Below the pieces are notes generated by a model. It ran no database searches. It saw only the letters and a list, made by a program, of their open reading frames with translations, and was not told where the DNA came from. A stretch of DNA of 64,000 nucleotides from Botryllus schlosseri. Its lineage: Eukaryota. Where the stretch lies: the NCBI GenBank assembly GCA_051294905.1, contig CM119371.1:5892001-5956000 (forward strand), read 5' to 3'. Numbering within the stretch: the first letter of the stretch is position 1; each line of letters starts with the position of its first letter. Of the stretch, positions 45,701 to 47,513 are shown one piece after another. A program made the translations under genes and the position numbers.

Positions 45701-46305
45701 ATATATCGCCTCATATCAGTAATGAGACAGAAGTGTGCATTTTCTAAATGTAAGTACACAGGTTTCGCTTCAAATGTACTACGACGTAGTGCGACAGCTT
45801 TACCCTCAGTCTTGGTGTACACGAAGATGGCGACATTAAACAAATCCTCGATATCATTCAACATGTCGAGAGTTACACCGGATTCTACATTGATACCATA
45901 TACCGAAGTGAATTGTTGGGCCATTGCTTTTGTATCTTTCCCTAGTGAGTGACCAATACAGCGAAAAGCACACAGATTATCATTGTACAGATGTCGATTT
46001 TTTCGACGTAGCATTGTCAAGATGCATTTCGATTGCGCAAGCCATGTCGGGAGTTTAATACCACCACAACCAATCAACAAACCGGCATCTGGGTATACAT
46101 ATACCTGCGGGTTGATCAGACAGACCGATTGTGTATCATGGAAAACATCCGACCACTTGTTCGAATATCGAATATTATACACTTGTCTATCGTTCACTAC
46201 ATACGATTTCGCTGGTTGCCAGTTCTGAGATGTAATTTGTTGCTTTTGGTTGTCGATCTCTGACAGCACATTCTCATCCTCGTGATTCCAGAGGTGTCGA
46301 CTCAT
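42712..46305 (-). CDS. Protein-primed family B DNA polymerase (pPolB); probable start MSRHLWN at 46305
   Basis: Exonuclease motifs AFDIES, FNGGRYD and KGHFPYEF; polymerase motifs DSNSLY, KLAGNSSYG and MDTDSL. N-terminal OTU-like and C2H2-like segments; internal Vsr-like insert. Uninterrupted ~1197 codons. Confidence 0.97.
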   Translation of the reverse strand: MSRHLWNHEDENVLSEIDNQKQQITSQNWQPAKSYVVNDRQVYNIRYSNKWSDVFHDTQSVCLINPQVYVYPDAGLLIGCGGIKLPTWLAQSKCILTMLRRKNRHLYNDNLCAFRCIGHSLGKDTKAMAQQFTSVYGINVESGVTLDMLNDIEDLFNVAIFVYTKTEGKAVALRRSTFEAKPVYLHLENAHFCLITDMRRYMESYRCDVCQRFFNLQYELTRHKCATGPVEVFPGGVYSPPLNIFEKLDLEGVFVPHQLRYFKYRIAFDIESMFEKCDIPDSSKTSWECKHIPISVSISSNVEGFLEPHVIVSNGDPNDLCAEMVDHFHDIQSESFRLLQMEYQHYLDMLETKITEMKAIDPSERKIPLERLQEEFMRYLKQIPVLSFNGGRYDLNCLKEYLMGLLVDENLSVLKRGNNFLSLTTNRLKFLDIVNYLAPGFSYDAYLKAFKCSAAKGHFPYEFLTSLEKLEYTSLPSHSDFYSSLKGRNISTAEYENCLKVWNDNKMTTLRDYLKWYNAIDTHYFIEGLEKQFQSFKSQFSVDIFKEAVSLPGVVSRHLFNSIPRDFTLFNDKHQDLVSLFRDNLVGGPSVIFHRYQKQGETRIKEFFYKENAQITQHVTGLDSNSLYLFALSEPSPTGFPIHWQPLDAECTKFKPVKTAPKWGETAAQWLNWYSYTHNVHVHHAFNGPEIHVGARNYPVDGFYRNSAGQGVILSFLGCHFHAHQCRFGCDDLERRERTKRVHDYYKSLNYQVICKWECDWRTEKQENPDIVRYLNGIQPQLTRTKSVTAQKLMEMVMTGTFFGCLSVDIFTPKHLQRKFVELCPIFKNTMVSREHLSGHMKQFAIDRKLLPKPTRMLVASYWGKKILLTSDLIKWYVEHGLIISKIHEAIEFTKKTCFDNFAKNVSDCRRAGDRDPSLEIIALTQKLAGNSSYGRVLMNPRKFKRTSYCDKSELGANVKDRFFVKHDELHADLFEITKRLKTIKWGNCIQVGFWVYNNAKLKMLSFFYDCLCKYFRDECFMLLMMDTDSLYLSHSASFDDILIPEKRDEFYLNYENWFPRYFCDEHRTEFLTNPVSFDRSRQCCKDTYAYYLRQPGLMKVEYEGGTSFCGLQSKNYFCDGPKKKLASKGLQKSNQVDFETFLSVLTSKEATGGVNKGFQCRDGGVYTYKQQRKTLSYFYAKRRVLQDGVSTLPLNV

Positions 46306-46684
46306 CTGTAAAATTGATAACACGCGGTTAAATTCAGCGCTTGTGGGAACATTAAACTAGTCTTACTTACAATCTATTTTCTTTGTCGTCGTCTTCCTTG
46401 ACTCTTTATGCTTAATAAAACCAGCAACATATTAAACTACGCACGCTAACGTCGTGTTATAGCAGATAACTTACCAGTAAACTCGTGTATTCAACTCAAA
46501 CCTCGAGTTCGCTCCGTCTGTTCAACAACAAACAAAAAAATCATTACATCTCACTCGCTAGTTCTGAACAGTAATAACTCACCTCTGCAATTCTTTGTTT
46601 AAATTTCGATGTTTGTTTTGTCTGTAGGATAAACAAATAACAAATTATATTCATAAATTAAAGTACTCGTACCGAATAACTTAC
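46306..46684 (-). other. Predicted four-intron micro-exon leader of pPolB (introns 46306-46370, 46411-46474, 46518-46582, 46622-46684)
   Basis: GTAAGT/GTGAGT donors and pyrimidine-rich AG acceptors define 63-65-nt introns. The last acceptor abuts the ATG. Confidence 0.7.
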
Positions 46685-47024
46685 TCATTAAACCCTTAAT
46701 CATGCGCCAATGTAATCTCTATATGTAAACTATTTAAATCTAATGACATAACTGACTTGAGATAGCGTTATCCACCTGGAAAACAAATGATACATTAACA
46801 AACAATGCAAAAATCATATCAAACAAACAAAATGTACAAATAAATCCCAATAACACCACACACAATACATACAAGTACATCTCAATAGAATTCAATGACA
46901 GGATTATTTTCTTGGGTCACTATGAAAATGATTGAGATCATGAAAAGACACATCGGTGTCGTAGTTTTTTTTTCGACGTATAAATAAATGATTGTGCAAG
47001 TCCTGGCTGTATTTCGATATCAGC

Positions 47025-47513
47025 TCAACCAATCAACAAACCATCAGTGGGGTATACGTAAAACTGTACATTAGCCAGACAGACCGCCCGGTATTTTGTA
47101 TCTGGTCGAGAGTCTTGTAACACATCTAGTGTCGTTTCCAATCTTATAGATTCAACAAATTCGTCGAATTCAGCTAGTGATGTAATCCCCACTGGGACTT
47201 CTAATACGCTATCGATGTTCGCCGATGCATGAAAATACCGAAATCTCCCAGCGGGGATGTTATGTAAAATGATTCCATACGCGAAATTCACTTTGAAACG
47301 GGTCGACTCTGAGAAAAATATCGCTTGGATATCGCGGAAAACGTCGGGTAGCTCACGATCGATGACTCGGATATTATACACGCGCCGACTCTGATTCACT
47401 ACATATGATTTTATCGCTTGCCAGTTCTGGGATACAACTTCTTGGTATTGGTCGCCTGTCTCTGGCGGTGTGTCTTCTTCCTCGCGAATGCGATTTCTCC
47501 GTCGTCGACTCAT
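47025..47513 (-). CDS. Stand-alone paralogue of the pPolB N-terminal (putative terminal protein) domain, 162 aa from MSRRRRN
   Basis: SQNWQAIKSYVVN...VYNIR...DVFRDIQ and VCLANVQFYVYPTDGLLIG align with the pPolB N-terminus. It has 79 extra internal residues and stops right after LLIG. Confidence 0.75.
   Translation of the reverse strand: MSRRRRNRIREEEDTPPETGDQYQEVVSQNWQAIKSYVVNQSRRVYNIRVIDRELPDVFRDIQAIFFSESTRFKVNFAYGIILHNIPAGRFRYFHASANIDSVLEVPVGITSLAEFDEFVESIRLETTLDVLQDSRPDTKYRAVCLANVQFYVYPTDGLLIG

Follow-up and report, generated by a model that had tools for sequence, protein, structure and literature searches.

A Polinton in the genome of Botryllus schlosseri carries a small stand-alone gene for the D1 or terminal-protein (TP) domain, which in fused relatives forms the N-terminus of the Polinton DNA polymerase (pPolB), and this gene stands upstream of a pPolB gene from which the core of the same domain is missing. 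The element lies in a stretch of 64,000 nucleotides (GenBank assembly GCA_051294905.1, contig CM119371.1, positions 5,892,001 to 5,956,000 of the forward strand), hereafter the window, to which all coordinates refer unless another locus is named; apart from the terminal inverted repeats (TIRs), all features of the element discussed here are on the minus strand. The stand-alone gene, ORF162, is an open reading frame (ORF) of 162 codons at 47025..47513, and the truncated pPolB, of 1197 amino acids (Pfam DNA_pol_B_2, E 5.1e-8), is encoded at 42712..46305. The simplest reading of this arrangement, supported by the sequences, is a tandem duplication followed by reciprocal loss, and we consider it fairly probable that the D1 gene split off in this way and that the free ORF162 protein would prime DNA synthesis for the truncated pPolB.

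A probable tandem duplication with complementary losses

ORF162 shares with pPolB a duplicated leader and the N-terminus, the latter being recovered by BLASTP as two separate blocks: residues 1-65 of ORF162 match residues 1-61 of pPolB (31/65 identical, E 3e-13), and residues 130-162 match residues 53-79 (17/33 identical, E 4e-6). The intervening 79 residues of ORF162 (64-142) have no counterpart in pPolB, where the gap falls between ...DVFHDTQ and SVCLINPQ..., with the deletion junction lying in frame between codons 59 and 60 (46128/46129). At the other end of the domain, direct reading shows that the codon following ...GLLIG is TGA in ORF162 (47025-47027) and TGT in pPolB. Homology to the pPolB coding sequence extends about 19 codons (~57 nt) past this TGA and fades near 46968, leaving a decayed trace of the linker with which the vOTU domain begins (46968..47024; repeat family D4, 46990-47086 versus 46031-46127, 72% identity, with a last 13-nt match at 46968-46980), and the corresponding linker remnant of sister copies contains stops and indels. 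A preliminary description of the window, made from the sequence letters, had claimed that the pPolB N-terminus occurs twice in tandem, that the upstream copy is an open frame closed by TGA exactly after the Gly and followed by decayed homology only, and that the polymerase's own copy has lost some 79 amino acids in frame; each of these claims is borne out. The possibility that the stop shared by the ORF162 copies is an intron artefact was considered and rejected, as a splice donor beginning with GT cannot be a stop codon and an ordinary TGA or TAA is present in 16/16 copies.

The duplicated unit is larger than the preliminary description had it, as it also includes the 5' leader with splice-like motifs and the tail of a further upstream frame, ORF80 (47781..48023), a small ORF that precedes the leader. 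The 3' part of ORF80 (47793-47891) is repeated at 46605-46703 with 78% identity (repeat family D2), within a decayed second copy of the ORF80 tail at 46531..46703 (repeat families D2 and D8, 78-86%; in-frame stops) that marks the start of the second unit. Leader A, ahead of ORF162 (47514..47790; with GGTAAGT-type donor motifs and a TACAG acceptor motif abutting ATG, read from the sequence), is repeated at 46306-46596 (76-86%; repeat families D1, D7, D8 and D13), and leader B, ahead of pPolB, occupies 46306..46532 (repeat families D1, D7 and D13, and alignment). Likewise, the 3' flank of pPolB (42515-42707, with the original flank placed at 42533..42707 by direct repeats and alignment) recurs just 3' of ORF162 at 46700..46856, the part 42533-42707 at 46715-46856, with 75-85% identity (E 8e-24; repeat families D6, D10 and D11), representing the end of a gutted upstream pPolB copy. 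Six direct-repeat families are spaced 1188-1208 nt apart (71-86% identity) and one is spaced 959, the shorter distance being due to the ~240 nt missing from the pPolB copy. The direct repeats and the recurring 3' flank thus define two head-to-tail units, each made up, in this order, of ORF80 tail, leader, pPolB and 3' flank.

We propose that the ancestor had a single TP-vOTU-Exo-Pol gene, as the fused sisters in the genome still have, and that the unit bounded by the tail of the upstream ORF and the 3' flank, with leader and pPolB in between, was duplicated in tandem. Of the two pPolB copies, the upstream one would afterwards have shed ~3.3 kb, everything between a point about 19 codons beyond D1 and the stop codon, and acquired a stop exactly at the conserved Gly-Cys boundary of D1 and vOTU. 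In the downstream one, an in-frame deletion of 79 codons would have taken out the D1 core together with the priming loop and left vOTU, exonuclease and polymerase in place.

The D1 fold of ORF162 and the truncated polymerase

The 162 amino acids of ORF162 share 73-86% identity with the N-termini of fused pPolB frames of ~1200-1300 amino acids in the same genome. An exhaustive HMMER search yielded 562 homologues at E<=1e-3, including full-length pPolBs matched at the N-terminus; a word-indexed search returned a single match of near-equal length (78% identical, 168 amino acids) and none among longer proteins, and the ESM Atlas search gave no usable match. The AlphaFold2 model, built from a 99-sequence alignment, has a predicted local distance difference test score (pLDDT) of 92.9 and a predicted template modelling score of 0.87. 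Its elements follow the order b0-b1-a1-b2-b3-a2-loop-b4, with strands at residues 37-40 and 44-49, a helix at 55-68, strands at 71-85 and 90-94, a helix at 113-135 and a strand at 141-160. The D1/TP domain of polinton pPolBs has been described as a four-stranded sheet (b0 being optional) with two helices in the order b1-a1-b2-b3-a2-b4 (PMC11071308), and by its model ORF162 is a complete D1 fold of this kind. Residues 135-141 of ORF162 read S-R-P-D-T-K-Y, so that a hydroxyl residue and a proline stand in the a2-b4 loop, as expected of D1. Thr139 (codon 47097-47099) lies in this predicted loop by Pro137, and the position is Thr or Ser across the family alignment (consensus RPxTK) as well as in all split copies; this is the expected kind of site for a priming residue, which makes Thr139 a candidate, on the modelled structure, for that role.

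In fold comparisons of ORF162, the top-ranking viral match comes from a Drosophila-associated adintovirus (a C2H2-domain protein of 560 amino acids, BFVD A0A7D4VFN9, E 4.2e-4), followed by the N-termini of MELD-virus PolB and of bidnavirus-like PolBs. Little-finger domains of Y-family polymerases (Pol eta, kappa, iota, Pol IV, Rev1 and Dpo4) recur among the matches in the Protein Data Bank (PDB) with Z of 3.8-4.8, that of Pol eta reaching Z 4.8 over 98 aligned residues (root-mean-square deviation 4.5); these domains were proposed as relatives of D1 in a 2024 study (PNAS, PMC11161782). Among the D1 homologues in the alignment, 25/99 have C2H2 zinc fingers N-terminal of D1, and together with the C2H2 protein of the adintovirus they indicate that D1 also occurs outside the context of the pPolB N-terminus.

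The polymerase gene, in turn, begins with a vestige of D1 (amino acids 1-79, 46069..46305), comprising the b0/b1 region and b4. In a model of pPolB residues 1-235, residues 1-74 are predicted to be disordered (pLDDT <50), and residues ~80-225 reach a pLDDT of 81-97; the latter correspond to a vOTU-like cysteine protease domain (~80-200) followed by a C2H2 finger (~205-225), encoded at 45631..46068. All listed Foldseek matches of the vOTU region in the PDB are OTU proteases or deubiquitinases (best 7mic, E 9.5e-3; 4bop, probability 0.99), with none at E<=1e-3, and the domain following the vestige is, as modelled, of the OTU fold. No variation is seen at Gly79, Cys80, Cys112 or His191 among 30 aligned pPolBs, and the catalytic Cys and His are kept in 15/15 split copies. 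A predicted complex of ORF162 with pPolB 1-235 obtained a median score of 0.38 against 0.01 for the best control, which weakly supports an interaction: the mark applied is reached by 51/78 solved complexes and by 2/108 mismatches, and passes of <=0.60 are more often wrong than right. The runs agreed by at least 45%, the partner had a pLDDT of ~30, and because the pPolB vestige is homologous to parts of D1 the prediction may be biased.

In functional terms, ORF162 made as a free protein would be equivalent to the mature TP that vOTU would release in fused elements; its contact with the truncated polymerase would be non-covalent, and the hydroxyl of the conserved Thr139 loop (RP-D/N-T/S-K) would serve as the primer for DNA synthesis at the element ends. 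The retained vOTU domain would then have other tasks, for instance trimming of the 79-residue vestige at the conserved site between ...LIG and C, or deubiquitination. The proposal of the preliminary description that the two copies complement each other, as a free TP ending at the likely cleavage Gly and a polymerase devoid of TP, is thus upheld as far as the sequences go, with priming being the part that we infer.

Sister copies, selection and alternative explanations

The arrangement is not confined to the window. In the searched genome (495 Mb, 219 contigs) at least 150 matches of ORF162 were scored among 253 candidates, and the best 30 D1 matches comprise 16 split copies and 14 fused ones, in which the 162 residues lead straight into vOTU and polymerase. 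The stop directly following ...LIG is kept in all 16 fetched split copies (15 TGA, one TAA) and also in locus L064, and the 79-residue deletion has an identical junction in 15/15 split copies with a readable pPolB start. Two of the 16 split copies have extra premature stops, and both genes are open in 6/16. Along its whole length the pPolB of the window shares 91-95% identity with sister copies; for the body of the protein, identity is 73-91% with close fused sisters (L058-L062) and drops to 35-68% with more distant copies. The truncated pPolB N-terminus is matched end to end, with 55-100% identity, at 39 genomic places, whereas fused copies match residues 57-110 only; comparing coordinates by hand, we found a D1 gene ~1.2 kb upstream at 24 of the 39. 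Genome-wide there are about 25 split copies alongside many fused sisters (roughly 60 fused ones listed).

Split copies come in three forms that differ in their 5' part. In form 0 (L064; four places with identical scores) the truncated pPolB is preceded by the 162-residue D1 gene, the leader and, furthest upstream, a full ORF292. Form 1, seen in the window and in three fetched copies, has the same leader with ORF80 in place of ORF292. In form 2 (12 fetched copies, L045-L048 and L050-L057) the leader with its putative intron, together with the ATG, is replaced by another 5' region with a TATA-like motif, and the first 73, acidic codons of ORF292 are joined in frame to codon 2 of D1, giving a gene of ~235 amino acids (e.g. 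L048:4946-5653, minus strand). D1 is intact through this remodelling in all three forms. ORF292 itself (L020:20-898 and homologues) is a conserved gene of ~292 amino acids that directly precedes fused pPolBs; its product starts with an acidic segment, continues with a basic stretch rich in Ser, Thr, Pro and Lys and ends in a helical C-terminal part. The first 73 residues have at least 96 matches in the genome.

The stand-alone D1 gene is, by its codon variation, under purifying selection, with the estimate blurred by heavy recombination. For residues 14-162 the median ratio of nonsynonymous to synonymous substitution rates (dN/dS) is 0.24 (Nei-Gojobori, 120 pairs of 16 copies; mean dN 0.059, mean dS 0.253). 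The ratio is about twice as high, 0.44-0.52, in the pPolB vestige and 0.20-0.26 in the linker plus vOTU (15 copies). D1 genes have no indels in 17 copies, compared with 37 distinct gap intervals in the adjoining spacer of ~700 nt (15 copies). We also counted split-private variants, i.e. codon variants found in split copies and in none of the 14 fused ones, a definition meant to limit import from fused D1s. Of these, 61/109 are nonsynonymous (N) or stops, compared with 77% expected (pooled binomial p 1e-6; N:S site ratio 3.34, S being synonymous), under a neutral expectation that ignores transition bias. Variants shared by >=2 copies comprise 21 N and 14 S, and singletons 37 N, 34 S and three stops. 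Fifteen of the 21 shared replacements fall in two patches, residues 80-89 and 106-115, with 6 N versus 14 S elsewhere. The patches correspond to 47246-47275 and 47168-47197, one being located at the tip of the b2-b3 hairpin and the other just before helix a2. The preliminary description had named neutral decay of the ORF and a duplication private to this copy as findings that would count against its interpretation; we see neither, and the reading as duplication with reciprocal loss is supported on this account.

A number of observations nevertheless weigh against this history or the proposed function. The divergence of the spacer (mean K 0.106) is lower than dS of D1 (0.257) and far lower than that of vOTU: among split copies L043-L057, synonymous divergence ranges over 0.03-0.52 in D1 and 0.25-0.88 in vOTU, and the spacer differs by 0.01-0.17. 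The D1, spacer and vOTU segments, moreover, group the copies differently, and the leader tree has no clade by position. These patterns point to frequent recombination among co-resident Polinton lineages, so that fused D1s may account for part of the low dN/dS and the sequence of events is beyond reconstruction; dating or ordering the events from trees was rejected for this reason, the leader phylogeny being a mosaic. The fused sample in the test of private variants is small (14 copies, against roughly 60 fused ones listed). From three RNA runs 9, 0 and 2 reads were recovered, and from one contig run fragmentary contigs, with no splice joints in either, too little to inform on expression or splicing. 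ORF162 matches solved structures weakly (best Z 5.3), and the TPs of PRD1 and adenovirus, comparison with which the preliminary description had suggested, are absent among the listed fold matches in BFVD, the PDB holding no such structures. Finally, 15 of the 39 places with a truncated pPolB show no upstream D1 gene. Two of these 15 were fetched (L063, G000:C1:27767300-27769400; L065, G000:C15:3046400-3048300), and in both an ORF292-like gene and leader lead straight into the truncated pPolB. Several D1-less places have long open pPolB frames, and since such elements persist, an adjacent D1 gene is evidently not required; their TP may be supplied in trans, or their existence could be a sign that the deletion was the earlier event.

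The latter possibility amounts to a reverse order of events, which we consider unlikely: pPolB with the 79-residue deletion would have arisen first, as a parasite of fused elements, and would have been rescued later when recombination with a fused element brought a truncated second pPolB, the D1 gene, into the upstream position, an acquisition in place of duplication with reciprocal loss. Elements with only a truncated pPolB do occur in divergent backgrounds (in L065 the upstream ORF shares just 39% identity with ORF292), DNA divergence between the two tandem copies is 14-29%, and several lineages have contributed to the mosaic leaders and D1 segments. However, a single unit duplicated head to tail is expected to leave just such a junction as is seen here, where the ORF80 tail comes immediately after the 3' flank, and recombination between the repeated leaders provides an easy way of losing the D1 gene and hence a route to D1-less derivatives.

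It is also conceivable, though we hold it to be quite unlikely, that ORF162 is a functionless leftover of the gutted tandem pPolB, open merely because it is short and the copies are young, and that the truncated elements are non-autonomous and copied in trans by fused Polintons. The D1-less elements, which have multiplied, fit such a scenario, as does the intactness of ORF162, which by itself is uninformative (14/16 copies open versus ~82% expected from the decay rate of pPolB); the scarce RNA reads give no support for expression, and the low dN/dS could have been imported by recombination with fused D1s. Yet the low dN/dS is accompanied by a depletion of replacements among the split-private variants, by the absence of indels next to a spacer full of them, and by the retention of the stop position in all copies; furthermore, form 2 gained a new 5' end with D1 undamaged, and the vOTU region of the truncated pPolB is itself constrained. 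A third alternative, that the free D1 is functional as something other than a primer (a regulator binding DNA ends or the polymerase, or a competitor against the replication of rival fused Polintons), would suit the co-residence of many fused lineages, the two surface patches with their shared replacements and the likeness to the DNA-binding little-finger domain, but it is improbable, given that what the polymerase of these elements lacks is precisely the D1 core that bears the priming loop, a loss for which complementation is the simplest account, and that the loop Thr/Ser is conserved in every split copy.

The host element and known systems

The element with the split pair is a Polinton of ~18.3 kb, as judged from the presence of pPolB, an rve integrase with a chromodomain and a P-loop ATPase between TIRs; pPolB, integrase and TIRs are indeed found together in one 15-20-kb unit. 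Its ends are set by TIRs at 31771..32568 and 49414..50033, which are 96-100% complementary (inverted repeats I1-I3); this near-identity suggests a recent insertion and thus a young Polinton. The right TIR holds short internal direct repeats (families D3, D9 and D12), with units of 28-51 nt and 67-93% identity at 49640-49975, mirrored at 31829-32115 in the left one, and the ORFs called inside the TIRs (31620-32192 and 49611-50063) are probably spurious. The integrase gene lies at 39711..40781 (Pfam rve 2.7e-16, Chromo 4.6e-9) and a putative packaging ATPase at 41490..42098 (weak P-loop NTPase matches in Pfam: AAA_14 6e-5, RNA_helicase 1.9e-4). ORF162, ORF80, ORF292 and the presumed capsid-module ORFs have no match in Pfam or PHROGs; for a double jelly-roll capsid protein and an Ulp1-type protease, further hallmarks of Polintons, the ORFs at 33.7-39.5 kb gave no match in either database. 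Outside the element, further clusters of ORFs of >=120 amino acids occur at 8147-19114 and 57545-61613.

Among 98 short database homologues of D1, eight end exactly at the boundary Gly (...P-I/L-G): P0001, P0009, P0025, P0040, P0066, P0091, P0098 and P0131. All but P0001 are 24-31% identical to ORF162 and come from contigs of 0.9-5.5 kb; metagenome contigs searched with P0066 yielded no relative. The sequences of these homologues suggest that stand-alone D1 genes are recurrent elsewhere. A bolder idea, which we advance tentatively and regard as rather unlikely, is that a free TP is a shared good, with D1-less elements cheating on the TP of split ones, and that the split at the Gly boundary is recurrent across eukaryotic Polinton-like viruses; the recurrence part draws on the seven unrelated Gly-ending proteins and on the quarter of short homologues with C2H2 fingers before D1. 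If true, recurrent splits at this Gly would locate the point at which vOTU cuts and reveal a common path leading to the layout of adenoviruses.

To our knowledge, no experiment has yet demonstrated protein-primed replication in Polintons. The TP role of the pPolB N-terminus and its release by vOTU are structural predictions, published in 2024 (PMC11161782). The window element offers a natural dissection of the fused polymerase in this respect, in that a solitary D1 gene closing at the Gly where cleavage is predicted stands beside a polymerase devoid of D1, with close fused relatives in the same genome as controls. The split pair may thus furnish clean proteins for a priming assay, and it provides a candidate cleavage site as well as a candidate priming residue. 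The preserved vestiges, moreover, show one plausible path, by duplication and complementary loss, from a fused polinton polymerase to a separate TP of the adenovirus type.

The 2024 study (Proc Natl Acad Sci USA 2024;121:e2405771121, PMC11161782) describes domain D1 of polinton pPolBs as a TP like those of PRD1 and adenovirus and domain D2 as vOTU, in agreement with what the preliminary description had taken as established, namely a TP region at the N-terminus followed by an OTU-like protease. According to the same source, the TP of protein-primed systems is encoded separately in PRD1 and cleaved from the pPolB N-terminus in the yeast plasmid pGKL. ORF162 has no detectable sequence similarity to the PRD1 TP or the pGKL TP domain, and the relation rests on the published structural comparison. 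Among the known counterparts are the fused TP-vOTU-Exo-Palm sisters in the same genome, which share the highly similar D1 noted above and have the same leader and the same upstream ORF292 as form 0; they differ in having one gene instead of two, the window element having a stop at the boundary of D1 and vOTU and the 79-residue deletion in the D1 of pPolB. The likeness to adenoviruses claimed by the preliminary description holds in part. As in the adenovirus pTP and polymerase pair, characterized in PMC11161782 by a D1-type TP fold and an N-terminal vOTU-like domain on the polymerase, the TP is encoded by a gene of its own; on the other hand, the adenovirus vOTU is without catalytic residues according to that source, whereas Cys112 and His191 are invariant in the family of the window element. 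The adenovirus TP, in addition, has large helical extensions and an insertion, while ORF162 is a bare D1, to which form 2 adds an acidic extension of 73 residues.

In layout, the window element fits the description of the Stylophora coral adintovirus (StCAV), a polinton with a separate TP gene and an active-looking vOTU on pPolB; to judge from the published description (PMC11161782), a separate TP gene and retained vOTU catalytic residues are common to both elements. A separate-TP layout is thus not new among polintons, as the coral element precedes ours. In the part available, the treatment of the polinton TP in PMC11161782 makes no mention of an origin by duplication, of D1 remnants, of remodelled 5' ends or of D1-less derivatives, and a paper on stony-coral polintoviruses (PMC11131425) does not discuss TP. 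With the layout itself already published, the value of the window element lies in the preserved intermediate and in the series of fused, split and D1-less elements that coexist in one genome.

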